Notes: generated by a model from the letters alone, not told the origin. A stretch of DNA of 47,699 bases from Candidatus Omnitrophota bacterium (GCA_013203315.1 JABMQJ010000024.1:1-47699), one strand, 5' to 3'. Positions 12,256 to 47,699 are shown, counted from the stretch's first letter. Made by a program: numbers and translations.

Positions 12256-13662
12256 ATGAGAGAATATTGTGGACTCTTCGGAATATGTGGTCATAAAGAG
12301 GCCTCGACCTTAACTTATTTAGGCCTATACGCGCTTCAGCACCGTGGGGAGGAGTCCTGCGGGATAGTTACCTCAAACGGCAGGCGCATATATCAGCACA
12401 AGGCGATGGGCACTATCTCCGATGTCTTCGACAAATCTGTCCTCAAAAAGCTAAGAGGGGACCTCGCCATAGGCCACGTTCGTTATTCCACAACGGGTTC
12501 AAGCACTCTAAAAAACGCGCAGCCTTTCGTCATAAATTATAAGCGTGGCGCAATTGCCATAGCGCATAACGGCAATATCACAAACTCGCTGGAACTTAAG
12601 GATGCCCTTGAAACAGGCGGATCCATCATTCAGACCGGCATGGATAGCGAGCTCGTACTTCACCTTCTCGTAAAAGCCAAATCACAAAACATAAAAGAAA
12701 GTTTAATCGAAATACTGCCTAAAGTAAAAGGCGCGTATTCTTTTCTTTTACTAGCGGGCGATACGATGATCGGCATAAGGGATCCTCACGGATTCAGGCC
12801 GCTTTGTATCGGCAAAGTAGGCAAAAGCTATGTCCTCGCCAGTGAAACATGCGCGCTGGATCTCGTAAACGCTAAGTACGTGAGAGATGTGGAGCCGGGA
12901 GAAATTGTTTTCATAAATGGGGGGCGCATCGAATCCGTTAAGCCGTTTCCTAAAATGCGAAAAGCGTCATGCATATTCGAGTTTATATATTTCGCAAGGC
13001 CGGACAGTAATATATTTACAAAAAACGTGTATTTGACGCGCAAGCGCCTGGGCAAGGCCCTCGCAAAAGAACATCCCGTGCCCGGGGCTGATTTTATAAT
13101 GCCGATACCGGATTCCGGTGTCTACGCGGCTTTAGGGTTTTCTGAAGAATCAAAAAGGCCCGTCGAAATGGGCATGATACGAAACCACTATATAGGCAGA
13201 AGCTTCATACAGCCATCGCAACACAGGAGAGATTTTGCGGTAAAGGTAAAACTAAATCCCATAAGAGACGTTTTAAAAGGCAAGAAAATCGCGATAGTCG
13301 AAGACTCGATCGTAAGGGGTACGACCTCGAGGCTAAGGGTAAAGGCTTTAAGAGAAGCCGGCGCAAAAGAGATTCACATGCGCGTAAGTTGTCCTCCACT
13401 CATATCGCCTTGTTACTACGGGATCGATTTCCCTACGACAAAAGAATTGATCGCCTCAAAACATTCAATTGAAGAAATCAGAAAATTTATCGGCGTCGAT
13501 AGTTTGAAATATATTAGCCTTAAAGGCATGCTGAATTCCATGATGCTACCTAAAGAGAATTTCTGCACGGCCTGCTTCACAAAAGATTATCCTGAACCGG
13601 TAAATAAGTGCTTCACAAAAAAAGGGCTTGAGACAAGAAGGAATAAATGCCTGCTTTTATAA
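12256..13662 (+). CDS. purF: Amidophosphoribosyltransferase
   Basis: MREYCG N-terminal nucleophile Cys, [26 protein letters not shown]; alternative ATG at 12247. Confidence 0.97.
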
Positions 13663-23016: not shown

Positions 23017-23294
23017 TGGATAGCGTGAAGTATGATACTCTTCAGGAAGAAAATTTGCTTCGGTTCGAATCGGTATGCATGCGCTGTGGCAGATGCTGCG
23101 GATCAAAAGATGGCGACCCTTGCGCAAAATTGCGGACAAATTCTGACAGGAGATATTACTGTGAGATTTATCGGGATAGGCTCGGCCCGCAAAAAACCGT
23201 AAGCGGCAGGGTGTTCAACTGCGTGCCCATAAGGGAGATGGCAAAATACGGTTACGCCAGGCCGGATTGCGCCTATAATAACGCAAGACAATGA
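23016..23294 (+). CDS. CxxCxxCC (YkgJ-like) cysteine-cluster protein
   Basis: CMRCGRCC, PC..L, CEIY.DR; ATG at 23016 overlaps the previous stop. Confidence 0.75.
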   Translation: MDSVKYDTLQEENLLRFESVCMRCGRCCGSKDGDPCAKLRTNSDRRYYCEIYRDRLGPQKTVSGRVFNCVPIREMAKYGYARPDCAYNNARQ

Positions 23295-33970: not shown

Positions 33971-34646
33971 AATTAGATTAAAGATAGCGGGCATATTTAG
34001 CACATTATGGCGGAAATTCACGGAAGGGTCATATGTTACTTTTACAACTGTCGCGATCTTCGGTATTTTGCTTGGAATATTTTTAAAAAGATTTACAAAA
34101 TATCCAAACAGCATCAATGACTGGATATCCTGGTCAATATTGTGGTTCTCGGCCGGCGCCTGGCTTCGAATGAGTTTTCAGTCAAATCCCAAAATGGAAA
34201 TCAAAATAGACACCGACCATAGCACTTTTCCCCCAAAGCCTAAAATAAGCCACGAAATAGATAAAAAAGGTACGCTATATGTTGATGCGGTTCTGAACTT
34301 TATCAATCGAAGTAGCACCAACAATTCAATAGTTAGTGAAAGATATTTAGTCAGCGGGGATAATAAGAAATATATGCCGGCACGGAAAAAAACAGGCAAT
34401 GGATCCGGCGTTATTAAAGAAATCCATTTACCGGACGTATATAGGCCATATACTGCGAGGAAACACAAAGTTTCTCTTGCTGTGGAAAAAAATTGTACAT
34501 ATGGAGTATTAGAAAATGGCCATAAATACTGGATTAAATTCATTTATGAACCGATAAACGGCAAGCATATTACAGTCACGGTTGAAAAAGAAATAGACAA
34601 TTCTATTAAAGAAAAACACAAATACCTGTCCCCAATTACAGTATGA
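33960..34646 (+). CDS. Hypothetical membrane protein
   Basis: Two TM helices, then a beta-rich domain; overlaps both neighbours. Confidence 0.65.
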   Translation: MTTKIRLKIAGIFSTLWRKFTEGSYVTFTTVAIFGILLGIFLKRFTKYPNSINDWISWSILWFSAGAWLRMSFQSNPKMEIKIDTDHSTFPPKPKISHEIDKKGTLYVDAVLNFINRSSTNNSIVSERYLVSGDNKKYMPARKKTGNGSGVIKEIHLPDVYRPYTARKHKVSLAVEKNCTYGVLENGHKYWIKFIYEPINGKHITVTVEKEIDNSIKEKHKYLSPITV

Positions 34647-35422
34647 AAATCTCACGCCCCTTAGTAGTCCTCGATCTTGAAACAACCGGAACATGGGTTG
34701 AGAAAGACAAGATTGTAGAGATAGGCATGGTAAAGCACCTGCCTGATGGCTCTAAAGAGAGCTATGTAAAGCGTGTAAATCCGGGCATGCATATCCCGGA
34801 GTCTGTAAGCAAAATTACGGGAATAAGCGATGAAGATGTCAAAGATGCGCTCATCTTTAGTAAAATAGCGCCTGAAGTGATTGCTTTTTTGGGAGACTGC
34901 AATATAGGGGGATTTAATATAGAGAGGTTTGACATACCTCTGCTTGAACGTGAGATAATAGATGTGGGGCTTAAGTTTGAGCTTGGCGATAGAGTTGTAT
35001 ATGATGCCCAGAAGATCTATAATATACATGAAAAAAGGAACCTTACGGCAGCATATAAGTTCTACTGCAATAAGGCGCTTGATAATGCGCACTCAGCGCT
35101 TGGAGATGTTGAAGCTACCTTTGAAATACTCTCGGAGCAGGTTAACAAATATGGGTCCACTGAAGAGGGTATTAGCTCCTTAGCTAAGTTTGATTACGAA
35201 AGGTCACTTGATTACTTTGATAAGGGGAGAAAATTCAGGTGGTGGAACAGTGAGCTTTATCCCATGTTTGGGAAACATGCCAGGCGCCATAGCATAAGAG
35301 AGCTGGTAAAGAGGGACCGTGCTTACCTTGAGTGGATCCTTTCTAAGGACTTTAGCGTTGAAGTAAAGGCTATGATAGGAGATGCCCTTTCCGGGGCATT
35401 CCCCAAGCCGCCAAAGAGATAG
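34643..35422 (+). CDS. DEDDh 3'-5' exonuclease (DnaQ-like)
   Basis: DLETTG, FNIERFD, AHSALGD; C-terminal FGKH...YLEWI. Confidence 0.92.
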   Translation: MKISRPLVVLDLETTGTWVEKDKIVEIGMVKHLPDGSKESYVKRVNPGMHIPESVSKITGISDEDVKDALIFSKIAPEVIAFLGDCNIGGFNIERFDIPLLEREIIDVGLKFELGDRVVYDAQKIYNIHEKRNLTAAYKFYCNKALDNAHSALGDVEATFEILSEQVNKYGSTEEGISSLAKFDYERSLDYFDKGRKFRWWNSELYPMFGKHARRHSIRELVKRDRAYLEWILSKDFSVEVKAMIGDALSGAFPKPPKR

Positions 35423-36407: not shown

Positions 36408-36614
36408 ATGAAAAATTTTATTGCTTTTGTTATTATTATTGTAGCTATAGTAATAGGTATCTACATAGTCTTCCCGAAATATACACTACACCCAATGGGG
36501 CAAGGAATTATGAGATACAACAAAGTTACCGGTCAGTCCTGGAGGTTAAATCTGAATGATGGCTATTGGGACGAAATAGAAGAGAAGGAATTGAAGGCAT
36601 CCGAAGCAAAGTAA
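36408..36614 (+). CDS. Small membrane-anchored protein
   Basis: TM then RYNKVTGQSW; stop TAA lies in junction repeat A. Confidence 0.75.
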   Translation: MKNFIAFVIIIVAIVIGIYIVFPKYTLHPMGQGIMRYNKVTGQSWRLNLNDGYWDEIEEKELKASEAK

Positions 36615-36631
36615 GGGAGATGCTTAAATAG
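36606..36631 (+). repeat. Gene-junction direct repeat, copy A
   Basis: GCAAAGTAAGGGAGATGCTTAAATAG. Confidence 0.7.
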
Positions 36632-36678
36632 TAGGAATGATGGCAAAAAAAGGTCGATTGGGTTAAGGAAAATGTCTT

Positions 36679-37002
36679 ATGGGTATTGAAAGACGTGCCG
36701 GTGAGCGTGTGCGTAAAAAAATTCACCTGCGAGTGGATCCTCCCGGTCATGCCGCGGATATTTTAGATATCAGTCTGCACGGACTTTTAATCGAATCTTC
36801 CAAGCACTATGTGCCTAACGCCGCGGTGCGCCTTACATTGATGTTACCCGCCGGCATGGAATTCCAGTGTGATGCGAACGTAGTTTGGGTGAATCCCCAA
36901 ACAACAACAGCACCCATTTATAAGGTTGCCCTGCAGTTCACAAGCCTATCCGAAGCCGATCTCGCAACACTAAAAAAAGTACTGCAAAATGAGAGCACTT
37001 GA
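36679..37002 (+). CDS. PilZ domain protein
   Basis: RRAGER and DISLHG. Confidence 0.85.
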   Translation: MGIERRAGERVRKKIHLRVDPPGHAADILDISLHGLLIESSKHYVPNAAVRLTLMLPAGMEFQCDANVVWVNPQTTTAPIYKVALQFTSLSEADLATLKKVLQNEST

Positions 37003-37025
37003 CTCATTTTATACTGCTTGTTACT

Positions 37026-37051
37026 CCGGAATAAGGGAGATGCTTAGGTGA
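37026..37051 (+). repeat. Gene-junction direct repeat, copy B
   Basis: CCGGAATAAGGGAGATGCTTAGGTGA; supplies SD and GTG start of 37048. Confidence 0.72.
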
Positions 37052-37254
37052 CAAGGAAACTATTTTGCATAGTTATTTTGATTGCAGCTTGTTTTACAAT
37101 AATTTTATATGGGTGTAGCCAAGGTAAGCCTGAAGAACCAAGCGTGATAGAAGTTCTATCAGGAAAAACGCAGCTAGACACGTATAAAAAAGCAAAATCT
37201 ACAATTGAAAAAATAGATAAATCTCGCAGTGAGCAATATCAGGGGTTGGAATAA
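37048..37254 (+). CDS. Small lipoprotein
   Basis: Signal peptide with LYG-C; GTG start inside repeat B. Confidence 0.75.
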   Translation: MTRKLFCIVILIAACFTIILYGCSQGKPEEPSVIEVLSGKTQLDTYKKAKSTIEKIDKSRSEQYQGLE

Positions 37255-37280
37255 AAATGACCCTCTCCACGATATAGATT

Positions 37281-37342
37281 AGGGACGGTTCTTTAGCCGA
37301 TCTTATATACCCGCATTTGGAGCATTCCGAATGTGGGTTTTT
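37281..37342 (+). repeat. Composite REP-half plus terminator repeat
   Basis: AGGGACGGTTCT..CCGATCTTATAT then ACCCGCATTTGGA..TCCGAATGTGGGTTTTT; paralogous to 39950-40013. Confidence 0.8.
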
Positions 37343-37402
37343 GTATTTATATGCTATATAATATATATATAGCATATTATAAGCATAAATAGTAATAACG
37401 CG

Positions 37403-37470
37403 TAAAATGTTAACTATGAAAAACCTAGATATTAGCCCTTGCGCTTTTAGCGGGGATTAGGCATACTTGG
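37403..37470 (+). promoter_or_regulatory. Duplicated promoter block, copy 1
   Basis: 67/68 identical to 40085-40152; TTGCGC-17 nt-CATACT. Confidence 0.8.
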
Positions 37471-37478
37471 GTAAGAGG

Positions 37479-37578
37479 GACGATAAAGGCACACCATCTG
37501 AAAAGATGGGTCGCAAAGCTTTAAGAGCCTCGCCTTGTAGGCGGAGTGTATCTACGAGTAAGGCAGTCAGCTTTCGAA
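37479..37578 (+). ncRNA. c-di-GMP-I (GEMM) riboswitch, U92 variant
   Basis: CGATAAAGGCACACCATCT-GAAA-AGATGGGTCGCAAAGC...GGCAGTCAGCTTTCG fits the GEMM-I layout; downstream terminator-like stem at 37596-37640. Confidence 0.8.
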
Positions 37579-37661
37579 AGTAAGCCTAAAAGGAAGGCCT
37601 ATTCATGTTTCATCCGAGGATGGCGTGAGTAGGTCATTTTGTGCTTTAGGAGGTTTTTGCC

Positions 37662-38036
37662 ATGAAGAAAGTAAGCGAAAGCAAAACACTGAAACTATTT
37701 ACCCTTATGTCCGAAGCCTGTCACGCATTCGAGAAGATAGCGGGAACTGCCGGGGCTCACATACGGTTTTCCTATAAGGGCAAGAAAGACCGTATAGTTT
37801 TAGCATGCGAAAAGGGTATGTTAAGCCAGATTGTAGCTAAGGGCGAAACTTCTAAAAATGGTGACTGTATTGCATGGAAGGAATCAGAGTTTAAAGAATA
37901 TACCCGGGAACAGGCCTTTCTTAAATTTTTTGACGATATCAATAAAATAGAGGTAAGCCATCCGAAGATGCTTAAGACGTGGGATTCTGTACAAGATTTT
38001 GAAAAGTGGCTTAAAGATGTGGTAGCGGAAAAATAG
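37662..38036 (+). CDS. Hypothetical protein downstream of the variant riboswitch
   Basis: AGGAGG SD; 124-aa ORF with no motif recognised. Confidence 0.75.
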   Translation: MKKVSESKTLKLFTLMSEACHAFEKIAGTAGAHIRFSYKGKKDRIVLACEKGMLSQIVAKGETSKNGDCIAWKESEFKEYTREQAFLKFFDDINKIEVSHPKMLKTWDSVQDFEKWLKDVVAEK

Positions 38037-38052
38037 AGTAAAACTAGGAAAG

Positions 38053-38093
38053 AGGGGACACCCCAGAGTTCACGAAACACCCCGTCCCTTAGC
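38053..38093. repeat. REP-like element
   Basis: AGGGGACAC.CCAGAGTTCACGAAACACCCCGTCCCT; paralogous to 40036-40083. Confidence 0.75.
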
Positions 38094-38128
38094 ACACCTG
38101 CCTCTCCACCATATTCGAACTTTTACAA

Positions 38129-38157
38129 TTGACATACTACTGCTTTAGGAGTAACAT
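38129..38157 (+). promoter_or_regulatory. sigma70-type promoter
   Basis: TTGACA-17 nt-TAACAT. Confidence 0.65.
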
Positions 38158-38171
38158 ATTTCGTATAGGAA

Positions 38172-38243
38172 TATAGGCGATGGGGCTCACCTAAAATTTC
38201 CCGCATTGGGATGATGGCTTCTACTGTAAAGTAGGAGTTTTTT
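38172..38243 (+). ncRNA. Fluoride (crcB) riboswitch with overlapping terminator
   Basis: GGCGATGGGGCTCACC...TGATGGCTTCTAC fits the crcB layout with pseudoknot; GGCTTCTACT-GTAA-AGTAGGAGTT-TTT competing terminator. Confidence 0.85.
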
Positions 38244-38262
38244 ACTTGAAAGATATAAATCA

Positions 38263-39951
38263 ATGATTGAATATGTAACAAATTTGCTAAGCAAAATACC
38301 ACTCCTCCATTTCAATATATTGCTACTTTTAGGGGTAGCCTTATTCGGTGGACTTGTTGGTGGCAGGCTATTCCAAAAATTAAAGATCCCACAGGTTGTG
38401 GGATATATAATAATAGGCATAATTATCGGAGAATCCGGCTTAAAAATTATTGACCATAATGCGATTATCGCTTTCAGGCCGTTTAATTATTTTGCGTTAG
38501 GGTTGATTGGATTCATGGTAGGAGGCGAGCTAAGGAAGGAATCGTTTCAGAAATACGGCAAAAATTTTCTCTACATTTTGTGCTGTGAAGGAATGGTTCC
38601 CTTTTTATTAGTATCATTTTTTGTAGGAATTATAGGAACTGCATTATTTGGAGCCAAACCTTTTGTGTGGGGATTAGCCCTTCTGTTAGGCGCGATATCA
38701 TCTGCTACGGACCCGGCCACTACTACATCGGTTTTAAAGGAATATAAGACGAAAGGGCCGCTAACTACGAATATACTGGGAATAGTCGCTTTAGATGACG
38801 GACTGGCTTTATTGCTGTTCGCAATTGCTTCGAGTATAGCAGGGGCATTGATCGGACGTGGCGGCGAGGGATTGCTCAGTGCCATTATTCATCCGTTATA
38901 TGAGATAGGCGGGGCTATCGCCCTTGGAGCCATATCAGGAGTAGGGTTAAATAGACTGCTTAGAAAATACGGAGAAAAGGATAGAATATTGGTATTTTCT
39001 TTAGGAACCGTTCTTTTTGTTACGGGACTATCGCTAACCCTGCATGTAAGCATGCTTTTGGCCGCAATGACACTTGGTGTTGTTGTGGTTAATAGACGGC
39101 CGCACAAAAGCAAAGAGGTGTTTAATTTAGTAGAAGCTTTTACCCCGCCGATTTTCTTACTTTTCTTTGTTTTGGTAGGCGCAAGATTACATTTTAGCCA
39201 GATTACATTGTCCGTTTTGATTTTAATATTCGTTTATCTTATATTTGGGTTATTGGGTAAGATGGTAGGAGCCAGGGTCGGAGCCTTGCTATCAAGGGCA
39301 CCGCAAACAGTTGTAAAATATTTACCATTCTCGCTTTTTAGCCAGGCGGGTATCGCCATAGGATTATCGATTTTGGCGGCCCAGCATTTTCAGGGTGAGC
39401 TAGGGCATACGTTAATTGTTGTTATAACGGCTACCACATTTGTAACTCAACTAATAGGCCCGGCCATGACTAAATATGCGGTTACTAAAGCAAAGGAAGT
39501 AGGATTAAACATCACGGAAGAAGACATAATTAAAGAAAGTAGGGCAAAAGATGTGATGGATGCCAATCCACCCGTGGTTTATGAAAACATGCAGCTTCGC
39601 AATATAATAAAAATATTTAGCGAACACGATAATTTATATTACCCTGTAGTGGATAGACAAGGCAAATTGTGCGGGGCAGTCACTGTTGAGGGCATAAAAC
39701 ACACATTATTAGAAACGGATATAGAAGGGCTTATTTTAGCAAATGATTTGATGGAATCGGTTGTTGCTACCGTTTTGCCAAATACTCACGTATCCGAAGT
39801 AAAGGAACTGTTCAATAGATATGCTATTGAGTATTTACCGGTAGTCGATAGCAGCGATAGGCTAAAGGGTTTTATAGAAAGAAAAATGCTTGATAAATAT
39901 GTTTCAACAAGGATGATAGAGCTGCAAAGGCATTTGGACACTTTGGCTTAG
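38263..39951 (+). CDS. Cation:proton antiporter with C-terminal CBS pair
   Basis: ATDPA, VALDD, QAGIAIGL, about twelve TM; two C-terminal PVVD..G motifs. Confidence 0.92.
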   Translation: MIEYVTNLLSKIPLLHFNILLLLGVALFGGLVGGRLFQKLKIPQVVGYIIIGIIIGESGLKIIDHNAIIAFRPFNYFALGLIGFMVGGELRKESFQKYGKNFLYILCCEGMVPFLLVSFFVGIIGTALFGAKPFVWGLALLLGAISSATDPATTTSVLKEYKTKGPLTTNILGIVALDDGLALLLFAIASSIAGALIGRGGEGLLSAIIHPLYEIGGAIALGAISGVGLNRLLRKYGEKDRILVFSLGTVLFVTGLSLTLHVSMLLAAMTLGVVVVNRRPHKSKEVFNLVEAFTPPIFLLFFVLVGARLHFSQITLSVLILIFVYLIFGLLGKMVGARVGALLSRAPQTVVKYLPFSLFSQAGIAIGLSILAAQHFQGELGHTLIVVITATTFVTQLIGPAMTKYAVTKAKEVGLNITEEDIIKESRAKDVMDANPPVVYENMQLRNIIKIFSEHDNLYYPVVDRQGKLCGAVTVEGIKHTLLETDIEGLILANDLMESVVATVLPNTHVSEVKELFNRYAIEYLPVVDSSDRLKGFIERKMLDKYVSTRMIELQRHLDTLA

Positions 39952-40083
39952 GCACGGTTCTCGCACCGATCTTACATACCCACATTCGGAGCTTTCCGAA
40001 TGTGGGTTTTTTTATTGATTTCCTGCTCCTTGAATAGGGGGGGGGTGCAGGCCAGAGTTCACGAAATGCCCCGTCCCGTAGCG
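39950..40083 (+). repeat. Composite REP-half, terminator and REP element
   Basis: Shares segments with 37281-37342, 42160-42195, 40873-40929 and 38053-38093. Confidence 0.8.
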
Positions 40084-40084
40084 C

Positions 40085-40152
40085 TAAAATGTTAACTATG
40101 AAAAACCTAGATATTTGCCCTTGCGCTTTTAGCGGGGATTAGGCATACTTGG
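40085..40152 (+). promoter_or_regulatory. Duplicated promoter block, copy 2
   Basis: 67/68 identical to 37403-37470. Confidence 0.8.
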
Positions 40153-40160
40153 TGTAAAGG

Positions 40161-40251
40161 AACGATAAAGGCACACCATCTGAAAGGATGGGCCGCAAAG
40201 CTCAAGAACCTAACCCTACATATACCGTAGGAAAGGTAGTCAGTTGCCGAA
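40161..40251 (+). ncRNA. c-di-GMP-I (GEMM) riboswitch, canonical G20/A47/C92
   Basis: CGATAAAGGCACACCATCT-GAAA-GGATGGGCCGCAAAGC...CCTAA...GGTAGTCAGTTGCCG. Confidence 0.9.
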
Positions 40252-40260
40252 GAGAAAACG

Positions 40261-40294
40261 ACCTATCCACATATGATGGATAGGTTTTTGTTTT
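40261..40294 (+). terminator. Riboswitch expression-platform terminator
   Basis: ACCTATCCA / TGGATAGGT followed by TTTTGTTTT. Confidence 0.8.
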
Positions 40295-40338
40295 ATAGCG
40301 GGTTTAATATTAAATATACTTAAAAAAAGTAGGGGGAG

Positions 40339-40833
40339 GTGAGGAAAATGAGGACTTTAAGGAAAGAGGGGAGAAAGGTTTTTGCAGGGCTCCTAGTTAT
40401 GGTCTTTATGTTATTTATTGTAGCAGAAGCTGCATATTCTGGAGGTGGCCAAGGCAAAGAGAGAGCCCAAAAAAGATCAAATGTTATGAGCCCGGGCTAT
40501 ATGAATGCCGCACTTCAGAAAGCAGCAAATCTGGAAGCTACTGATAGTGAATCTTCGAATAAAAGATCGAACGCAAGATGGTCGGACAACCCTAAAGACA
40601 GAAGAGGGCAGGGGAATATGGGAAAACCCAACATGATAGTCCCTTACGGATTTGATAAATATAGTGGTAGAGAAAAATCCGAAAGGAGTCGCATGGGAGA
40701 CAAATACCACTATCAGTCCTTCGGTTATGCTCTTTATGCCGTAATTGGTGGTATCTATTCGGCATCCATGGATCCTAGGAAAATTACTGGTTTTTATGCC
40801 ATTGCAAGCGGCTGGTTATACAGCAACCCTTAA
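40339..40833 (+). CDS. Secreted hypothetical protein under the c-di-GMP riboswitch
   Basis: Signal-like N-terminus and polar low-complexity middle; start may be the ATG at 40348. Confidence 0.65.
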   Translation: MRKMRTLRKEGRKVFAGLLVMVFMLFIVAEAAYSGGGQGKERAQKRSNVMSPGYMNAALQKAANLEATDSESSNKRSNARWSDNPKDRRGQGNMGKPNMIVPYGFDKYSGREKSERSRMGDKYHYQSFGYALYAVIGGIYSASMDPRKITGFYAIASGWLYSNP

Positions 40834-40872
40834 GGCTGTATGGTCACAAGGTATGTAGGGAATAGGGATTAT

Positions 40873-40929
40873 AAACCCACATTCGGAAAGTTCCGAATGT
40901 GGGTTTTTTTATTGATTTCCTGCTCCTTG
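40873..40929 (+). terminator. Repeated terminator with conserved tail
   Basis: ACCCACATTCGGAA / TTCCGAATGTGGGTTTTTTT plus ATTGATTTCCTGCTCCTTG, near-identical to 39978-40032. Confidence 0.85.
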
Positions 40930-40969
40930 CAGCATAGAATAGTCTTATATTAAAGTACATAAGGGAGGA

Positions 40970-41113
40970 ATGATGGATGCTTGTCCATTACTGCAGTGGT
41001 GTAAGTGTAGCGGAACTCAAATTTGTCTCTTTTGCAAGATATTAACCGTTATTGGAATTGTTGCCATAAGCGGCCTTGTCGGTTATTTCATAGGGAAGAG
41101 ACAAAGAAAATAA
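40970..41113 (+). CDS. 47-aa Cys-rich single-TM protein (not in ORF track)
   Basis: MMDACPLLQWCKCSGTQICLFCKILTVIGIVAISGLVGYFIGKRQRK; GGGAGG SD; ends 3 nt before repeat C. Confidence 0.65.
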   Translation: MMDACPLLQWCKCSGTQICLFCKILTVIGIVAISGLVGYFIGKRQRK

Positions 41114-41116
41114 ATC

Positions 41117-41145
41117 CGCCCCAAAGCAAAGGAAATGTTTAAGTG
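41117..41145 (+). repeat. Gene-junction direct repeat, copy C
   Basis: CGCCCCAAAGCAAAGGAAATGTTTAAGTG; supplies GTG start of 41143. Confidence 0.85.
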
Positions 41146-41412
41146 CATAAAACCACTAAAAAAATCATAGCACTTTTATTAATATGTTTATTTTTAAATG
41201 GATGTGCGCTTTTTGAGCTTCCCGGACAAACCGTGAAAGTCGTAGGAACTACAGTTGGAACAGTTGGTAAAGTTGTCCAAACTGCCGGAAATGTTGTTAT
41301 TACGGGGGGCCAGGTAGTAGGTAAGGTTGTAGAAGCCGGTGGAAAAGTTATAGAAACAGTAGTCAAGGCTCCGGGAATAAAAGAAGTTATAACCAATAGA
41401 ATAGCCCCATAG
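41143..41412 (+). CDS. Small lipoprotein with V/G/T-rich repeats
   Basis: Lipobox LNG-C; repeated V..(A/G/V)GKVV units. Confidence 0.78.
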   Translation: MHKTTKKIIALLLICLFLNGCALFELPGQTVKVVGTTVGTVGKVVQTAGNVVITGGQVVGKVVEAGGKVIETVVKAPGIKEVITNRIAP

Positions 41413-41427
41413 ACAGTTTGTGGGGCG

Positions 41428-41453
41428 CAAGAATAAGGGAGATGTTTAAATAA
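41428..41453 (+). repeat. Gene-junction direct repeat, copy D
   Basis: CAAGAATAAGGGAGATGTTTAAATAA. Confidence 0.7.
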
Positions 41454-41464
41454 GGAGGAATAAT

Positions 41465-41662
41465 ATGGCTGACAAACATTCAATGAGAATTAGCTTTCGT
41501 AAAGTTCCGAAGGACCCCAATATGTTTGAGTTTACAATTGCTGCGCCGTTACTCCGAGCTCAATTTCGCCTTCCAAGAGCGATAGTCAACAACTTAAGAG
41601 TTGAGTTAGAAAGAGCCATTACAAATAAACCGAACCCGTCCCAAAGTAAAGGAGATGTTTAG
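41465..41662 (+). CDS. Small hypothetical protein
   Basis: AAGGAGG SD; stop TAG supplied by repeat E. Confidence 0.7.
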   Translation: MADKHSMRISFRKVPKDPNMFEFTIAAPLLRAQFRLPRAIVNNLRVELERAITNKPNPSQSKGDV

Positions 41663-41666
41663 GTGA
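41637..41666 (+). repeat. Gene-junction direct repeat, copy E
   Basis: CGTCCCAAAGTAAAGGAGATGTTTAGGTGA, 29/30 to copy F. Confidence 0.9.
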
Positions 41667-41691
41667 ATAAAGGTGGGGGAAAGGAGTAGTT

Positions 41692-42156
41692 ATGCTTTGG
41701 ATATGTTATTCTACATTAACTGTAATCGGTGCCGTATTGCACATTCTTATTGCCAAAACACCCGTAATATATACATTCCTTTTATATTTCCTTGTTATAA
41801 ACATAGGGGCTGCAGGTGTTACCGCATTTTTTGGGCATGCGTTCAGGTCTGATGAGGTGGCCGAATATATAGGATGGCCGAAAGGAAATCCTTTTCAACT
41901 GGAAATTGCCTGCGCAAATCTTGCTACGGGAACACTTGGGATACTATGCATATGGTTTCGCGGGAATTTCTGGATTGCAACGGCAATTGTCTCCTCTGTG
42001 TTCGCGCTGGGCGCGGGCGTAGTGCACATAATGGAAATCATCAGGAATAAGAATTACTCTCCCGGTAATGCCGGTATGCCGCTTTATTTTGATTTTATAA
42101 AACCCATCGTGGTCTGGTGCCTCATGATTGCGTATCTTCTGGGTTTTAAAGGATAA
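41692..42156 (+). CDS. DUF6790-like membrane protein
   Basis: FFGH.F..D.VA..IGW...NPFQLEIA.ANL, N..PGNAG. Confidence 0.75.
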   Translation: MLWICYSTLTVIGAVLHILIAKTPVIYTFLLYFLVINIGAAGVTAFFGHAFRSDEVAEYIGWPKGNPFQLEIACANLATGTLGILCIWFRGNFWIATAIVSSVFALGAGVVHIMEIIRNKNYSPGNAGMPLYFDFIKPIVVWCLMIAYLLGFKG

Positions 42157-42159
42157 TTT

Positions 42160-42195
42160 AGGGACGGTTCTCGTGCCGATCTTACACCCGTCCCT
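42160..42195. repeat. Intact REP-like element
   Basis: AGGGACGG-TTCTCGTGCCGATCTTACAC-CCGTCCCT; left part shared with 37281, 39950 and, shorter, 33221. Confidence 0.8.
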
Positions 42196-42222
42196 TATTC
42201 CCTTTAAAGATATGAGTAATAA

Positions 42223-43401
42223 ATGAAAATAAAAAACTCAGTTAAATTTTTAATCATTGGTGGCGTATTTTTAGGATTTTATTACCTACCCATTGAATTA
42301 CTGCCTTTTCGAAACCCTATATTTGAATCTTTAGCCTTGGCTAAATGGTATGCGAGAGAACATGTGCTATTGTGTTTAGTGCCGGCTTTCTTTATCGCGG
42401 GAGCAATATCTGTTTTTGTAAGCCAGGCAGCTGTTATCAAGTATTTTGGAGCACAAGCCAAAAAGGTATTAGCTTACAGCGTAGCATCTGTGTCTGGAAG
42501 CATATTAGCTGTTTGTTCCTGTACGGTCCTGCCTCTATTTTCAGGTATTTATAAGCGCGGAGCCGGCTTAGGGCCCGCTGTTGCATTTCTTTATTCCGGT
42601 CCTGCCATCAATGTTTTAGCTATAATTTTTACAGCCAAAGTTTTAGGATGGGAGCTTGGCCTTGCAAGGGCAATAGGAGCAGTAGTCTTTAGCATAATTA
42701 TAGGCCTTTTAATGCATCTAATATTTATTAAAGAAGAAAGACGGCGTCATGCGGAAGGTAATTTCTCAGTACAAGACGAAGAAGTATCGAGGCCTTTATG
42801 GAAAAATGCGATATATTTTGTCTCTATGATTGGGATTTTAGTATTTGCTAATTGGACAAAACCCGGTTCTGGAGATACGGGAATATGGGTAAACATATAT
42901 CATTTTAAATGGATAATTACATCTTTTTTTGCGGTAGTATTAGCAGTAATATTGGTAAGCTGGTTTAAGAAAGACGAGCTCGGCAAGTGGGTAAAATCGA
43001 GTTGGGAGTTTGCTCTTCAAATACTACCGTTACTTCTTTTTGGTGTATTGGTTGCAGGGTTCCTTCTTGGCAGGGTAGGACATGAAGGCGTAATCCCATC
43101 AAGATTTGTTGCAAGATTAGTCGGAGGCAATTCATTATTCGCGAATTTCTTTGCTTCAATATTCGGCGCATTTATGTATTTTGCTACACTTACAGAAGTG
43201 CCTATACTACAAGGCTTAATTGGCGCAGGCATGGGCAAAGGCCCTGCATTGGCGTTGTTATTGGCAGGCCCGGCATTGAGCTTGCCTAGTATGCTCGTAA
43301 TCCGGAGTGTTATAGGAACGAGAAAGACTATCGTGTATATATTGTTGGTTATTATTATGGCTACTCTAAGCGGGATTTTATTTGGAATTATAGTTAGATA
43401 A
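42223..43401 (+). CDS. ArsP-like (DUF318) permease
   Basis: HVLLCLVPAFFIAGAI, AVCSCTVLPLF, YFATLTEVP, AGPALSLP. Confidence 0.9.
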   Translation: MKIKNSVKFLIIGGVFLGFYYLPIELLPFRNPIFESLALAKWYAREHVLLCLVPAFFIAGAISVFVSQAAVIKYFGAQAKKVLAYSVASVSGSILAVCSCTVLPLFSGIYKRGAGLGPAVAFLYSGPAINVLAIIFTAKVLGWELGLARAIGAVVFSIIIGLLMHLIFIKEERRRHAEGNFSVQDEEVSRPLWKNAIYFVSMIGILVFANWTKPGSGDTGIWVNIYHFKWIITSFFAVVLAVILVSWFKKDELGKWVKSSWEFALQILPLLLFGVLVAGFLLGRVGHEGVIPSRFVARLVGGNSLFANFFASIFGAFMYFATLTEVPILQGLIGAGMGKGPALALLLAGPALSLPSMLVIRSVIGTRKTIVYILLVIIMATLSGILFGIIVR

Positions 43402-43411
43402 AGGAGAAAAA

Positions 43412-43642
43412 ATGAAAATAGAAATACTTGGTATGGGGTGCCCTAAGTGCAAAATGCTTTATGAGAACGCAAAGAAAGCTGTTAGCGAGACAGGCGTTCA
43501 GGCTGAAGTGCTCAAAGTGGAAGATATGGATAAAATTACAAATTATGGCGTGATGATGACACCAGCGCTTGTTATTGACGGAAAGGTGAAAACAACAGGT
43601 AAGATACCCGGAGCGGAGGATATTAAAAAATGGTTAGTATAA
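43412..43642 (+). CDS. Small redox-active disulfide protein (MTH895/ArsE-like thioredoxin family)
   Basis: ILGMGCPKC, YGVMMTPALVIDG. Confidence 0.9.
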   Translation: MKIEILGMGCPKCKMLYENAKKAVSETGVQAEVLKVEDMDKITNYGVMMTPALVIDGKVKTTGKIPGAEDIKKWLV

Positions 43643-44049
43643 AACGGTTTTTAATCATTTTTATCATAGGAGTTTTTATCATTAACGCATCTTCCGCATT
43701 CTGCGATAACGGCAAAGTTATAGCTTATTATTTTCACGGAAGCTTTCGCTGTCCTACCTGCCGCAACCTGGAGCAATATGCCAAAGAAGCGATTGAAAAT
43801 AATTTTAAAAAAGAATTAGCGGAAGGCAGCCTCATATTTAAAGCAGTAAACGTTGAAGAAAAAGAAAACGAACATTTTATGAAAGATTACCGGCTTTATA
43901 CAAAATCATTGGTTTTATCTTTAGTAAAAGATGATAAAGAGGTAAAATATAAAAATCTTGATAAGATCTGGGAATATGTAAGAGACAAAACGAAATATAT
44001 GAATTATGTTAAAAACGAAGTTGCTATTTTCTTAAAGGATTTGAAATGA
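43630..44049 (+). CDS. ArsF-like exported thioredoxin-fold protein
   Basis: Signal peptide; YYFHG..RCPTC. Confidence 0.8.
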   Translation: MVSIKRFLIIFIIGVFIINASSAFCDNGKVIAYYFHGSFRCPTCRNLEQYAKEAIENNFKKELAEGSLIFKAVNVEEKENEHFMKDYRLYTKSLVLSLVKDDKEVKYKNLDKIWEYVRDKTKYMNYVKNEVAIFLKDLK

Positions 44050-44726
44050 TAGAGATTTTCGTTGCTTTTGGGTCTGCCATCTGGCTTGGCATACTTACGT
44101 CGATTAGTCCCTGCCCTTTAGCGACTAATGTTGCCGCTGTCTCTTTTTTGTCAAAGAAAATAAATAATCCTAAAGCGGTTCTACGGGCAGGGAGCGCTTA
44201 TACATTTGGGCGCATGGTTGCTTATGCTGTTTTGGGTATGATCATTATAACGTCTATCGCTAGCGTACCTTCTGCGGCGAATTTCCTGCAAAAATACATG
44301 AACAGGATATTGGGCCCCATATTGCTTGTGGTTGGGCTATTCCTTTTGAATGTCATGAGGCTCAATATTTCAGGTTTTACACTTTCGAAAGAAAAACAGG
44401 AATCCTTAGCTGGGTCGGGAGCAAAAGGCGCATTCTTATTAGGAGCTATTTTTGCGCTTTCATTCTGCCCGATTTCAGCGGCATTATTTTTCGGCAGCCT
44501 TATTCCTTTGGCGCTAAATAGCAAGGTAGGTATACTGTTACCTTTCTTTTTTGGAATAGGCACGGGGCTGCCGGTTATGCTTTTTGCAGTCGGAATTGCG
44601 CTTGGCATGCTATCAGTTTCACGCTGGTTTCATAAAGTAGCTGCGATAGAGAAATATACAAGAAAAATAACAGGTATTATATTTGTGTTAGTTGGTTTAT
44701 ACTTTATATGGAACTACATCTTTTAA
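44046..44726 (+). CDS. ArsG/CcdA-like (DsbD transmembrane) protein
   Basis: LGILTSISPCPLATN and FALSFCP.SAALFFG. Confidence 0.85.
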   Translation: MIEIFVAFGSAIWLGILTSISPCPLATNVAAVSFLSKKINNPKAVLRAGSAYTFGRMVAYAVLGMIIITSIASVPSAANFLQKYMNRILGPILLVVGLFLLNVMRLNISGFTLSKEKQESLAGSGAKGAFLLGAIFALSFCPISAALFFGSLIPLALNSKVGILLPFFFGIGTGLPVMLFAVGIALGMLSVSRWFHKVAAIEKYTRKITGIIFVLVGLYFIWNYIF

Positions 44727-44730
44727 AATT

Positions 44731-44780
44731 AGGGACGCATCCCAATTCTTGCATATGTGCAAAAAAGAGGATGTGTCCCC
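44731..44780. repeat. REP-like hairpin
   Basis: GGGACGCATCC...TTGCATATGTGCAA...GGATGTGTCCC. Confidence 0.65.
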
Positions 44781-44818
44781 ATTAAAAGGGAATATCAAAC
44801 TAAAATTGGAGGTAACTA

Positions 44819-45439
44819 ATGACGAACCCGGTAATTGAAGCCATAAACAAGAGAATGTCTGTCAGGGCTTACGACTCAAAACCAATTCCGAAGAATATTA
44901 TTAATGCGATCATCGCAGCCGGCAACCAGGCACCTTCAAGGGGGAAGGAGGAAAAAGGAAGTAAGGAATTTATTTTTCAGCCCTGGCGGTTTGTTGTTGT
45001 GGAGGACTCAGAGTTCAAGAAAAAACTCGTAAAGACCACACTTCCGGTCTGGAAAAAATTCATTGAAAACATGAAGAAATCGCACCCTGAAATGTACGAG
45101 TACGTAATGATGACCTATAAGGCAATGGAAGAACCCAAAGACATGGTTTACTATTCTGCGCCTGCCATCCTCTTTGTCGTAGGGCCAATCGGACACGATG
45201 TAAGTTGCGCGCTTGCCTGCGAGAACATCATGATTGCCGCAACCTCTTTCGGCCTGGGAAGCTGTTATGTGGGATTCGGTGCAATGGTCAAAGGCGATGC
45301 CGATATCGTACAAACCCTCGAGCTAAAGGATGATGAACGGATCTTCGGGCCTATCTTGCTTGGCTATCCGAAGAGCGATCCTAGCGCGCTAGATAGCATA
45401 CGGCCGGAGAAAAGAGAACCCGTAATTAAATGGATCTAA
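44819..45439 (+). CDS. Nitroreductase family protein
   Basis: RMSVRAY, APS, QPWRFVVV, NIMIAA...GLGSC, LGYP. Confidence 0.9.
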   Translation: MTNPVIEAINKRMSVRAYDSKPIPKNIINAIIAAGNQAPSRGKEEKGSKEFIFQPWRFVVVEDSEFKKKLVKTTLPVWKKFIENMKKSHPEMYEYVMMTYKAMEEPKDMVYYSAPAILFVVGPIGHDVSCALACENIMIAATSFGLGSCYVGFGAMVKGDADIVQTLELKDDERIFGPILLGYPKSDPSALDSIRPEKREPVIKWI

Positions 45440-45509
45440 AGGAAGGTTCTGTAATGTTAGTGGATAGAGTTATTGTTTTTGGGGGAAAAGGAATTTTTTA
45501 TAAGGAGAA

Positions 45510-45869
45510 ATGATGGAGAAGAAAAGATGGTCTAAAGGGATAATTATTTATGCGACCATAGGACTTCTTATTGGCATATGGGTTACACCTATAGTTTCCT
45601 GGAGCAACTTTAATCCTTATTGGTTTATTGGTCCTGCATTTATTATTTTAAGTATTAGTATGTTTCTAATGAGAAATTGGGTTCGCATTACTATTATTAC
45701 ACTCTCTATTTTTTATATTCTTCTTCATGTCTTTGCTATGATTCAAAGTCACTCTTCTCCTAGCCCATTTACTTATGTATTATTGAGTTTGCTTTCCCCA
45801 GTTCTTTTCTTTTGTATTTACTCTCTTGTTTACCTCACACGCCCCAAAGTAAAGGAGATGTTTAGGTGA
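45510..45869 (+). CDS. Four-TM small membrane protein ending in LTRPKVKEMFR
   Basis: Last 10 codons, including the stop, are repeat F. Confidence 0.8.
   Translation: MMEKKRWSKGIIIYATIGLLIGIWVTPIVSWSNFNPYWFIGPAFIILSISMFLMRNWVRITIITLSIFYILLHVFAMIQSHSSPSPFTYVLLSLLSPVLFFCIYSLVYLTRPKVKEMFR
45840..45869 (+). repeat. Gene-junction direct repeat, copy F (consensus)
   Basis: CGCCCCAAAGTAAAGGAGATGTTTAGGTGA. Confidence 0.9.
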
Positions 45870-46012
45870 AACTGGTAAGTAATAAACTATGTAGAAAAAG
45901 ATATAAGGTGCAAATAAAACTCCGCAAATGGGTAAATGGTGGAGGATGGGGCTGGGATGTAGGAAAAGTGAATCCAAAGAAAAAGAAGCCCCAAAGTAAA
46001 GGAAATGTTTAG
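45866..46012 (+). CDS. 48-aa basic ORF running from repeat F to repeat G (not in ORF track)
   Basis: GTG in F to TAG in G: MKLVSNKLCRKRYKVQIKLRKWVNGGGWGWDVGKVNPKKKKPQSKGNV. Confidence 0.45.
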   Translation: MKLVSNKLCRKRYKVQIKLRKWVNGGGWGWDVGKVNPKKKKPQSKGNV

Positions 46013-46016
46013 GTGA
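45988..46016 (+). repeat. Gene-junction direct repeat, copy G
   Basis: GCCCCAAAGTAAAGGAAATGTTTAGGTGA, 28/29 to copy F. Confidence 0.9.
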
Positions 46017-46032
46017 ATCCCGGAAATAGATT

Positions 46033-47169
46033 ATGAACAAGATGCATAAAAATGCCAGTAAAAAGTTAAAGATTGTACTGGATGTCTCAAAAACCGTAAG
46101 CTCTACCCTTGATCTTGACACCGTCAATGACCTTATTCTAAAAAAGGCCATATGGGCGCTCGGAACAGATCATGCCTCACTCTTTTTACCTGACGATTCA
46201 GGGAAGCATCTCATGTTGAGGGCCGCCAAAGGGTTCACTAAATACGAGATGAGCAATCTCGCCATACTCGAAAGCTGGGAGAGAATAAACCTTCAGGTAG
46301 CAAGGAGTAAGAAACCGATCATCGTAAATAATCTCAAATCTCATGCAATCTTCAAGAAGGAGAAGCTACCCTTTTCAAAGAAAGAACTCCCTCTTAATTC
46401 TTTCTTGAGTGTTCCCTTAATGGCGAAGAAGAACCAGATAGTGGGCGTCTTGATCGTAAGCAATAAGAAGGGGCATCCCAACATCTTCACAAAGAGCGAC
46501 AAAGAGCTTCTTATGACTCTGGGAAACCACGTTTCAATAGCCCTTTTAAACGCTAAACTATACAAGGGTCTGGAAGACCTCTTCATAAGTACAATAAAAT
46601 CGCTGGCTAACGCAGTTGACGCCAAGGATCCGTACACTCGCGGACATTCAGAGAGAGTCATGAGATATTCTCTGGCGATAGCGGGCAAGATGGAACTTTC
46701 GGAAGATTTTATGAAATGGCTCAAACTTTCAAGCCTCCTTCATGATGTCGGGAAGATAGGGATAAAAGACGCTATATTGGGAAAGGAGGCCAAGCTTAGC
46801 ATGGATGAGGTCAAGATCATGCAGCAGCATCCGATTATAGGGATAAATATCGTTTCATCAATAATAGGCTCTGAAAGAATAGTAAGAGGTATATCAGATC
46901 ATCATGAATGGGTCAACGGGAAAGGATATCCGAAAAAATTGACTGGTGATAAGATTTCACTTGAAGGAAAGATCATCGCTATTGCGGATACCTTTGATGC
47001 GATGACCACAAACAGACCGTATCAGAAGAAATTCACAAGCAAGGAAGCCTGCCTTGAAATAGCTCGGAATATTAATACGCAATTCTCCCCTGAGGTTACG
47101 AGGGCATTTATGCGTTCTTTCAGCGAAGAGAACCATATTTGGTGTATGCCATCAGACCTTAACCGTTAA
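46033..47169 (+). CDS. GAF plus HD-GYP cyclic-dinucleotide phosphodiesterase
   Basis: GAF (LSVPL, IVGVL), YTRGHSERV, HDVGKIG, HHE..NG.GYP, RPY. Confidence 0.93.
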   Translation: MNKMHKNASKKLKIVLDVSKTVSSTLDLDTVNDLILKKAIWALGTDHASLFLPDDSGKHLMLRAAKGFTKYEMSNLAILESWERINLQVARSKKPIIVNNLKSHAIFKKEKLPFSKKELPLNSFLSVPLMAKKNQIVGVLIVSNKKGHPNIFTKSDKELLMTLGNHVSIALLNAKLYKGLEDLFISTIKSLANAVDAKDPYTRGHSERVMRYSLAIAGKMELSEDFMKWLKLSSLLHDVGKIGIKDAILGKEAKLSMDEVKIMQQHPIIGINIVSSIIGSERIVRGISDHHEWVNGKGYPKKLTGDKISLEGKIIAIADTFDAMTTNRPYQKKFTSKEACLEIARNINTQFSPEVTRAFMRSFSEENHIWCMPSDLNR

Positions 47170-47170
47170 A

Positions 47171-47351
47171 TATGGAAAGAAAATTGCAAAAAAACACAAC
47201 TTAACTAAAGAGCGGTTAGATGAAATATCAAACGAAGGAATACTAAAATACTGGCCATGCCTAAAGATTGGATGGATAAAAAATGAATAAACCCATCAAA
47301 AAAATCATAGTGAAATCTACCCATCCCAAAGCAAAGGAGATGTTTAGGTGA
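47171..47351 (+). pseudogene. Two fused gene remnants upstream of repeat H
   Basis: Start-less frame YGKKIAKKHNLTKERLDEISNEGILKYWP..., then 22-aa MNKPIKKIIVKSTHPKAKEMFR whose first 28 nt resemble the start of the 41143 gene. Confidence 0.5.
47322..47351 (+). repeat. Gene-junction direct repeat, copy H
   Basis: CATCCCAAAGCAAAGGAGATGTTTAGGTGA, 27/30 to copy F. Confidence 0.88.
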
Positions 47352-47368
47352 TTTTGAAGCACTAAAAG

Positions 47369-47699
47369 ATGAAAAAAACTAGATTAATAATCTTAGGCAT
47401 TTTAGGTCTAGCGCTCATCGTATTATTTATCCGCTCTACATCTGTGGGCATGGCTTCATATTATAGTAATGGATTGAGAGGCAAAAAGACAGCTAGTGGA
47501 GAGCGTTATGACCCAAATAAGCTTACAGCCGCCCATAAAACTCTACCTGTTGGGACTATGGTGAAGGTAACGAATTTAGGCAATAATAAGCAGGTAGTGG
47601 TTAAGATAAATGACCGAGGTCCTTACGTAAGAGGTAGAATCATAGACCTGTCATATTCAGCAGCACGCCAGCTAGGCATGCTTAAGGACGGAGTAACGA
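47369..47699 (+). CDS. rlpA: RlpA-family lytic transglycosylase (DPBB), cut by the window end
   Basis: GMASYY...TASGE.YD...TAAHKTLP.GT.VKVTN...INDRGPY...IIDLS. Confidence 0.9.
   Translation, partial: MKKTRLIILGILGLALIVLFIRSTSVGMASYYSNGLRGKKTASGERYDPNKLTAAHKTLPVGTMVKVTNLGNNKQVVVKINDRGPYVRGRIIDLSYSAARQLGMLKDGVT

Follow-up and report, generated by a model that had tools for sequence, protein, structure and literature searches.

A 33-nt junction element at gene boundaries in variable islands of Candidatus Omnitrophota: a candidate translational coupler and crossover point for gene modules

Copies of the junction element in the window

The window, i.e., the whole 47,699-nt stretch of DNA analyzed here, was contig C23 of G000, a 1.5-Mb, 32-contig metagenome-assembled genome (MAG) of Candidatus Omnitrophota. 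Its right-hand part harbored a short junction element in eight copies (36606 to 47322), all on the + strand and all at the places reported by an initial annotation made from the sequence alone. The 19-nt core of the element was matched at each of these places and nine times in the window altogether (0.41 matches expected from shuffled sequences, largest count 2), the ninth match, at 23229, displaying three mismatches and lacking the flanks; the 30-mer consensus was found at 41637, 45840, 45987/8, and 47322 with zero to three mismatches and never in the shuffles. The division into five copies near the consensus and three core-only copies (36606, 37026, and 41428) fitted the printed sequences, and the reported absence from the first 33 kb agreed with a profile of 37 copies, which detected nothing upstream of 36.5 kb on the contig at E ≤ 10.

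The first two copies lay on either side of a PilZ gene: (i) copy 1 (36599–36631; core-only variant ...GCAAAGTAAGGGAGATGCTTAAATAG; profile E 1e-4) closed open reading frame (ORF) 36408–36614 with its TAA and lacked RTG at the fixed position (the start of the PilZ gene, 36679, was 63 nt past GGAG); and (ii) copy 2 (37019–37051; core-only variant) was located 17 nt past the PilZ stop, and its GTG at 37048 opened a 68-aa lipoprotein-like ORF. Copy 3 (41114–41146) followed a 47-aa transmembrane (TM) ORF (40970–41113), and its GTG at 41143 opened an 89-aa lipoprotein with a weak match to NF038104. Copy 4 (41421–41453; core-only variant) was followed by a gene at 41465 using its own Shine-Dalgarno (SD) sequence, and about 25 nt of its 5′ flank were shared with, and found again at, C2:1988-1932 of the same MAG. 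Copy 5 (41634–41666; one mismatch to the 30-mer) closed ORF 41465–41662 with its TAG, and its GTG opened an 8-codon upstream ORF (uORF), the stop of which lay 2 nt ahead of the ATG (41692) of a DUF6790 gene.

Copy 6 (45837–45869; consensus) encoded in frame a the tail ...VYLTRPKVKEMFR* of a 119-aa multi-TM protein (45510–45869), and its GTG at 45866 overlapped the stop of this protein (GTGA) and opened a 48-aa ORF (45866–46012) of the small-protein family MKLxxNKLCRKRYKVQIK.... This ORF was closed by the TAG of copy 7 (45984–46016), the GTG of which opened a 7-codon uORF whose TGA overlapped the ATG (46033) of a GAF/HD-GYP gene. Copy 8 (47319–47351) closed with its TGA a 22-codon ORF (47283–47351; MNKPIKKIIVKSTHPKAKEMFR), and its GTG opened a 5-codon uORF ending 3 nt ahead of the ATG (47369) of an RlpA-like gene. 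The 22-codon ORF consisted of the N-terminal 9 codons of a gene that was whole in G008:C52 (12660–12947), fused to the element; two similar units were present in metagenome contig L085. No Pfam or NCBIfam family was found for the small ORFs of the window. The use of all three stops was thus as initially annotated, and so was the use of the GTG as start codon at 37048, 41143, and 45866; the AAGGAG ascribed to all three did not hold, since AGGGAG was found at 37026 and AAGGAA at 41117.

Strong + strand terminators were located at 37309–37338, 39978–40007, and 40873–40906; they were near-identical (13 to 15 pairs plus a T run) and made up a second repeat family, closing transcription units between the arrays. 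From 40906 to 47699 no + strand terminator-like site of more than 6 pairs was found, the one weak 6-pair match being at 42385–42404, and thus the six copies located there (copies 3 to 8) were internal gene junctions of one long co-directional run (40907–47699, + strand). This run was composed of small ORFs and genes for DUF6790, an ArsP permease, Trx_3, DsbD_2, a nitroreductase, a TM protein, the 48-aa ORF, HD-GYP, and RlpA. No promoter-like or terminator-like site was found at any copy. A contig of the X1 run reaching 47699 also matched the copy at 45841 over 31 nt, and thus the array probably continues beyond the contig end.

Structure of the element

Sixty-three distinct copies from G000, its relatives, and metagenome contigs were aligned, and the conserved unit was 33 nt, ACCCGCCCCAAAGTAAAGGAGATGTTTAGGTGA, covering positions −17 to +15 around GGAG; the repeat initially given as about 30 bp was real, with a measured conserved block of 33 nt. 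Its 5′ edge was gradual, and its 3′ edge was abrupt, right after T-R-R. Of 61 distinct copies, 60 contained the frame-b stop, 57 the frame-a stop, and 52 the frame-c stop, and 50 had all three: the frame-c stop (TAA) lay just ahead of the SD sequence, the frame-b stop (TAG) abutted the start codon, and the frame-a stop (TGA) overlapped it as RTGA. ATG or GTG was found 8 nt past AAGGAG in 35 of these 61 copies, and in 27 an ORF of at least 40 codons started there; in G000, such ORFs were those at 37048, 41143, and 45866 in the window and those of a Zn-ribbon protein and an integrase on C2. The ORFs downstream of copies had a median length of 94 aa, and a hydrophobic 19-mer above threshold was present in 37 of 54, versus 987 of 2203 crude background ORFs.

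The weak dyad symmetry that had been described existed (5 of 6 pairs) but was not conserved: position −10 was C in 53 of the 63 copies, but the partner position (+11) held G in only 34 and A in 29, and no covariation in the dyad was found in the 63-copy alignment. Folding of the eight window copies gave no common stem (z-scores −2.5 to +1.7, one of eight below −2), and no Rfam family matched at any copy. Motif variants were genome-specific, with A at position −3 in 12 of the 14 copies of G000 and G in 6 of the 8 copies of G041, another MAG, as would be expected under gene conversion or within-genome spread. The 16S rRNA 3′ end, for comparison of the anti-SD sequence, was not found in the G000 assembly.

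Membrane-protein tail and conservation at the nucleotide level

Frame a of the block read ...L-T-R-P-K-V-K-E-M-F-R/K-stop. Within the window, the 119-aa multi-TM protein (45510–45869, + strand) was the single intact representative of a family with the element as its frame-a C-terminal tail, and further family proteins ending in this tail were found in L045 (four, 154 to 245 aa) and G008:C52 (two). Five relatives of the 119-aa protein (P0002-P0006; 63 to 76% identity) ended in YLT[RH][PS][KR]VK[EK]xFK, two of them with extra residues beyond, and differed from the tail at the M position; diverged tails KEQFK, KELFK, and VRQF also occurred. The family had no name in Pfam or NCBIfam, and Atlas gave a weak DUF2127 lead (score 0.86).

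An upstream ORF of at least 45 aa ended within the element in frame a at 15 of 64 distinct copies, in frame c at 14, and in frame b at 6, while 29 copies had none. Unrelated proteins ended in frame c (...SPAPK*, ...LPDPK*), including orthologous 237/240-aa proteins in two assemblies, and unrelated frame-b endings such as ...PQSKGDV* existed as well. One of the eight window copies followed a member of the multi-TM family, and the copy ahead of the Zn-ribbon gene was conserved across three genera. Since the element was used in all three frames or without an upstream ORF, its conservation is, as judged from the aligned copies, at the DNA level and was not confined to the protein level. The tail was at the same time a genuine feature of real multi-TM proteins, and thus the element most likely stems from the final codons of this family (YLTRPKVKEMF[K/R]) plus the start region of the next gene. 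The initial annotation had offered as an alternative that the repeat was the conserved tail of small membrane proteins; this stood as a likely origin, in view of the real multi-TM family, and failed as a full account, with 15 of 64 copies at such a tail.

Distribution in genomes and collections

The 37-copy profile gave 14 matches at E < 0.05 in G000, eight at 36.6 to 47.4 kb of C23 and six at 1.1 to 10.4 kb of C2 (minus strand), and only very weak matches in the rest of the MAG; no contig-end overlap joining C23 with C2 was found. In G041, seven of eight pattern matches were on one 9.9-kb contig, on which a looser regular expression detected eight copies within 8 kb. Copies were thus clustered rather than scattered, at two loci in G000 and on one contig in G041.

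The element was present in 6 of the 14 genomes of the family to which the window belonged (one to three copies each outside G000) and in none of the 27 genomes of other families in the search of relatives. A phylum sample of 401 genomes contained five with the element: G000 with eight copies, G003 with three, G011 with two, and members of two other families with one each. When one genome per species was scanned, 26 stretches matched: seven were labelled Omnitrophota/Omnitrophica, one was labelled Planctomycetia yet carried the same module as G013, and the remaining ones were single matches in other phyla, as expected of an SD-like pattern. A stricter pattern was matched by 16 metagenome contigs, including L085 with seven copies. 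These genome, family, phylum, and collection scans indicated that the element is lineage-restricted and confined within a genome to one or two loci. A phage or plasmid origin was also considered and rejected: the motif pattern had no matches in viral contigs, and a 47-nt query had none among plasmids and phages. No description of the element was found among the listed results of full-text searches of the Omnitrophota literature on cassettes, repeats, integrons, and islands.

Sequence comparison of element-bearing loci

Twenty-nine element-bearing loci were compared all against all, with the exclusion of same-genome pairs, high-scoring segment pairs (HSPs) shorter than 70 bp, and one same-organism pair (99.9% identity). 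Contig edges aside, 74 HSP ends remained, and 35 of them fell within 12 nt of a copy, while 2.1% of bases were that near, an enrichment to be taken qualitatively because the loci were chosen by the element and the HSPs were not independent. Three sets of neighbors illustrated the exchange of content between copies: (i) a 94-aa gene (MIGIVFF...) was found between two copies in G003, G011, G013/L093, L087, and L099, with four different left and three different right neighbors in these five assemblies; (ii) window 45842–46017 (176 bp; copy, 118 bp, copy) was 97% identical to L085, the identity beginning inside the first copy and ending right after the second with both outer flanks differing, although the L085 organism was distant (its three best shared genes were 47, 55, and 64% identical at the protein level); and (iii) one 53-aa gene of L085 followed two different upstream genes 8.5 kb apart, both gene copies bearing the same rare 1-nt-deleted motif variant.

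Contigs of a related population (93 to 97% identity to the window) agreed with these breakpoints: one matched the window from 45993 rightwards (copy 7) with 233 unlike upstream nt, one from 47325 rightwards (copy 8) with 137 unlike upstream nt, and one up to 41452 (copy 4) followed by 1290 unlike nt. Any two window copies shared no more than about 28 identical nt, and thus assembly chimeras at 31-mers are unlikely, though possible for the contigs of relatives. In G001 (same genus) and G003, only the exonuclease gene 34643–35422 was common to the compared stretches. The content between copies therefore differed among relatives with breakpoints at the repeat, as anticipated, and the comparison supports a role of the repeat as a junction for gene shuffling that may end and restart translation.

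Contigs of four runs were searched for rearrangement joints, and no circle or deletion joint with long sides was found between copies. Joints touching copies had sides of only 22 to 42 nt and were explained by the similarity of copies or by paralogous start regions; they speak neither for nor against deletions or circles between copies. Two further joints, 40942>42188 and 40950>45442, suggested variants without the copy-containing blocks; their ends were away from copies and their sides were short.

A block within the co-directional run (ArsP permease, Trx_3, an unnamed gene, and DsbD_2; 42220–44723) was 91% identical to G003:C56, from another genus, and 82 to 83% identical to its two copies in G001, from the same genus. 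The higher identity to the other genus suggests lateral transfer of this block, which was flanked by no junction element in G003 or G001.

Recombinase genes in G000 and its relatives

ORF and family searches confirmed that the window contained no recombinase gene. The GTG of the last copy on C2 was the start codon of a gene (C2:32-1111) for a tyrosine recombinase of 359 aa (Pfam Phage_integrase, 9e-33), so that the search for a recombinase accompanying the element succeeded at one place, without a consistent linkage to the element elsewhere. C2 began inside a tRNA gene, which the integrase gene adjoined (L001/C2 1–1111), co-oriented at the downstream end of the array. A 76% identical homologue was present in G008 (C52 23100–24176) with tRNA-Met and tRNA-Val behind it. 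This tRNA adjacency on both contigs indicates, as far as gene context can tell, that the C2 enzyme is an ordinary tRNA-side island integrase. Between the C2 and G008:C52 islands, nothing was shared but the integrase, one lipoprotein-like gene of 119 to 121 aa, and the TM family.

Homologues of the integrase were found in 2 of the 13 other genomes of the family (G008 and G009), and the element was absent at both starts; no homologue was found with the C2 query in the element-bearing G003, G011, G013, and G006. No recombinase ORF was present on the array contig of G041 (9.9 kb) or on L085 (14.4 kb). G000 further harbored two Xer-like tyrosine recombinases (C25:40564-41076 and C17:18592-19107) and two Y1 transposases on other contigs, and no serine recombinase was found in it. 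The C2 enzyme was rejected as an integron integrase, with 71.6 bits on TIGR02249 (cut-off 265) and 38.1 bits on NF011946 (cut-off 435).

Comparison with known systems

The element had been proposed to be a recombination or insertion site analogous to integron attC or pdif but matching neither; a shuffling junction fitting neither system was supported, and a dedicated site-specific recombination site was not. Element arrays resembled integron cassette arrays, including clusters of attC sites lacking integron-integrases (CALIN), in having co-oriented, mostly small, promoter-less, unrelated genes and in a content that varied between relatives with boundaries at the site. An attC site is an imperfect palindrome of about 55 to 140 bp with paired core sites that folds single-stranded, while the element was 33 bp without a stable imperfect hairpin, and its GTTTARR did not fit the 7-nt integron core GTTRRRY. 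Moreover, attC sites vary in sequence, while the element was near-invariant; integrons have IntI, while the only integrase near the element was the C2 enzyme, far below the integron cut-offs; and the element itself carried an SD sequence and a start codon, unlike attC.

Sites of the dif/pdif type are 28 bp, with an XerC arm, a 6-bp spacer, and an XerD arm (11-6-11), palindromic inner arms, and alternating orientation. They resemble the element as short sites flanking mobile gene modules with no need of an element-encoded recombinase, but the consensus had no 11-6-11 layout and the copies were all direct; the best dif candidate of G000 (C6, near 75641) was unlike the element, which was thus rejected as a dif-like site. 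Repetitive extragenic palindromic (REP) sequences, bacterial interspersed mosaic elements (BIMEs), and miniature inverted-repeat transposable elements (MITEs) are palindromic and scattered in both orientations, while the element was non-palindromic and restricted in G000 to two loci and one strand relative to genes. Two further candidates were rejected: (i) a CsrA/RsmA site, which presents GGA in a hairpin loop, PF02599 being found in none of the 14 family genomes (the control was found in three reference genomes) and a conserved hairpin being lacking; and (ii) a structured RNA or DNA hairpin, given eight folds without a common stem and a dyad without covariation. The tails of the multi-TM family resembled the element as frame a of real 113-245-aa membrane proteins and differed from it in that 49 of 64 copies closed no such protein and that other frames and non-coding positions were conserved as well.

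The PeSL regulatory cassettes of T4-type phages are described as promoter and terminator stem-loops that lie, within hyperplastic regions, between small non-essential genes, and recombination between their copies is reported to shuffle modules and make mini-circles (Arbiol et al. 2010, PMC2839356). The element resembled PeSLs as a short conserved expression signal at small-gene junctions, with breakpoints that speak for an exchange of modules; PeSLs act on transcription, in phage, by a promoter and a hairpin, neither of which the element had, while the element provides stop, SD, and start for translation in a bacterial chromosome island, and no circle comparable to the PeSL mini-circles was found in the contigs of the four runs. 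On this comparison, the element would work like integron cassettes and PeSL regulatory cassettes and is a member of neither.

Proposed function and alternative explanations

We consider the element, with a probability of about 0.5, to be a portable stop/SD/start junction that derived from a membrane-protein tail, couples translation, and serves as a point of crossover where modules are shuffled within variable islands; the coupling, the mechanism of recombination, and the origin are all three what we infer from sequence comparison. The stop in each frame would end the upstream translation, and AAGGAG, the 8-nt spacer, and ATG or GTG would restart it, which would make the element an intercistronic translational coupler within co-directional, promoter-less runs made up mainly of small genes for envelope proteins. 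Where the gene started later, the uORF from the GTG of the element ended at or within 3 nt of the true ATG (41692, 46033, and 47369), which is the geometry of termination-reinitiation coupling. As the copies are nearly the same, they would also act as recombination points, through short-homology recombination or gene conversion rather than an established dedicated enzyme, and modules bounded by copies would be exchanged, lost, and duplicated, both within variable islands and from one genome to another in a single Omnitrophota family.

Several points weigh against this proposal. RTG was absent from the fixed position in 26 of 61 copies; gene boundaries are natural synteny breakpoints anyway, and the breakpoint enrichment was, as said above, qualitative; no joint with long sides linking two copies was found in the contigs of the four runs; and the stretch common to all recombinant junctions was only about 20 to 33 bp, which is short for RecA-type recombination in terms of minimal homology. 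An enzyme might instead be behind the recurrent use of a site of this length.

Such an enzyme is the premise of a dedicated, non-integron cassette system, in which the element would be the site for the island tyrosine integrase, the Xer pair, or another enzyme that excises and inserts units of element plus gene, the stop/SD/start content ensuring expression of the captured gene. This explanation is unlikely, although it would account for breakpoints that fall, in many independent contexts, within a stretch that is very short and highly conserved, for a 148-bp unit shared at 97% between distant genomes, for the L085 cassette duplicated together with its rare motif variant, and for strictly co-oriented, clustered arrays; the only non-Xer-like tyrosine recombinase of G000 started at the GTG of a copy, and the variable ARR positions adjoined an invariant GTTT. 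The recombinase data nevertheless ran counter to it: the integrase was tRNA-adjacent like an ordinary island integrase, had homologues in only 2 of 13 other family genomes with element-free starts, and had none detectable with its sequence in four element-bearing genomes; the G041 array contig and L085 carried no recombinase ORF, and G000 had no serine recombinase. The dyad was weak, not kept, and interrupted by a 12-nt gap, and neither circles nor deletion joints were found in the contigs of the four runs. It is accordingly doubtful that these are a new kind of cassettes unrelated to integrons, in which one 33-bp site would be both all-frame translational coupler and recombination site, served by a novel recombinase or a co-opted Xer or island enzyme; a captured gene would then need neither its own promoter nor its own ribosome-binding site, and units as small as 148 bp would pass between distant Omnitrophota.

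The portable-junction reading also has to be set against two explanations that fit less of the evidence. In one, which is quite improbable, the element is an RNA-level regulatory site, bound by a repressor or small RNA or cut by a processing nuclease, that co-regulates the island genes, with recombination being incidental. Its constant position on the sense strand at or just before the start codon, its inclusion of the SD sequence, a nucleotide conservation exceeding what an SD sequence needs, and the neighborhood rich in cyclic di-GMP (c-di-GMP) functions (two riboswitches, PilZ, and HD-GYP) would suit such a site, while all 14 family genomes lacked a CsrA gene, the copies had no Rfam match, no consistent fold, and no dyad covariation, and the clustering and genome-specific variants are not explained by it alone. 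In the other, the copies are pure relics, i.e., decayed 3′ ends of the expanded RPKVKEMF(R/K) membrane-protein family that duplication and deletion left behind and that serve no function themselves. Frame a as the tail of real family members, the diverged tails, the resemblance of the 22-codon ORF to a deletion product, and the substitutions (transitions only, conservative in frame a, among the examined G000 copies; a few transversions in the wider set) speak for relics; yet 49 of 64 copies had no frame-a family member upstream, unrelated proteins ended in the element in frames b and c, orphan copies were near-identical across genera with unrelated flanks, the sharp 3′ edge coincided with the start codon, and relics would not have persisted at breakpoints in this many settings, which makes this explanation very improbable.

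If the portable-junction reading is true, the element would be a natural expression-ready linker that ends any upstream frame, gives a ribosome-binding site and a start codon, and marks swap points of modules, offering very small streamlined genomes of an uncultivated phylum a simple way to keep fast-changing small envelope proteins. An idea taken from transcription in phages, that conserved regulatory junctions double as recombination linkers, would then also hold for translation and for a bacterial chromosome, and the element could serve as a compact part in synthetic biology.

Neighboring features

Two c-di-GMP-I riboswitch aptamers were located at 37478–37578 and 40160–40251 (+ strand; 54 and 70 bits versus a gathering score of 35), preceding the unnamed genes 37662–38036 and 40339–40833, respectively; they accounted for part of a 77% repeat (37279–37530 / 39948–40211). 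Together with PilZ (36679) and GAF/HD-GYP (46033), they made the region rich in c-di-GMP control. A fluoride riboswitch (38167–38230, + strand; 38.3 bits versus 34) preceded a Na+/H+ exchanger-CBS gene (38263–39951), which was outside the usual fluoride exporter families.

The small-protein family MKLxxNKLCR(K/R)RYKVQ(I/K)K was found at 45866–46012, in L001 (C2) at 13146–13286 (minus strand), and in L101, L102, L103, and L095. Its C-termini were variable and often TM, and several Omnitrophota families had members, most of which were not preceded by the junction element. Both G000 members directly preceded genes for c-di-GMP enzymes: HD-GYP in the window, and on C2 a response regulator that, as read from the sequence, is likely of the GGDEF type.

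Tandem heptamers (AGCGGAT-like or AAGCYRT-like) directly followed several copies in two other MAGs, at about 1282–1330, 1795–1850, 4003–4040, and 4666–4700 of L045 and in L008/L055. Another start context that recurred, AGGAG(R)AATGATG(R)AGAAGAAA, from which proteins begin MMEKK or MMKKK, was present at 45487–45530 of the window, at about 2222–2261, 3130, and 3932 of L001 (C2), and in L097, L099, L044, and L091; it often came after the stop of the element and underlay several of the short-sided contig joints.

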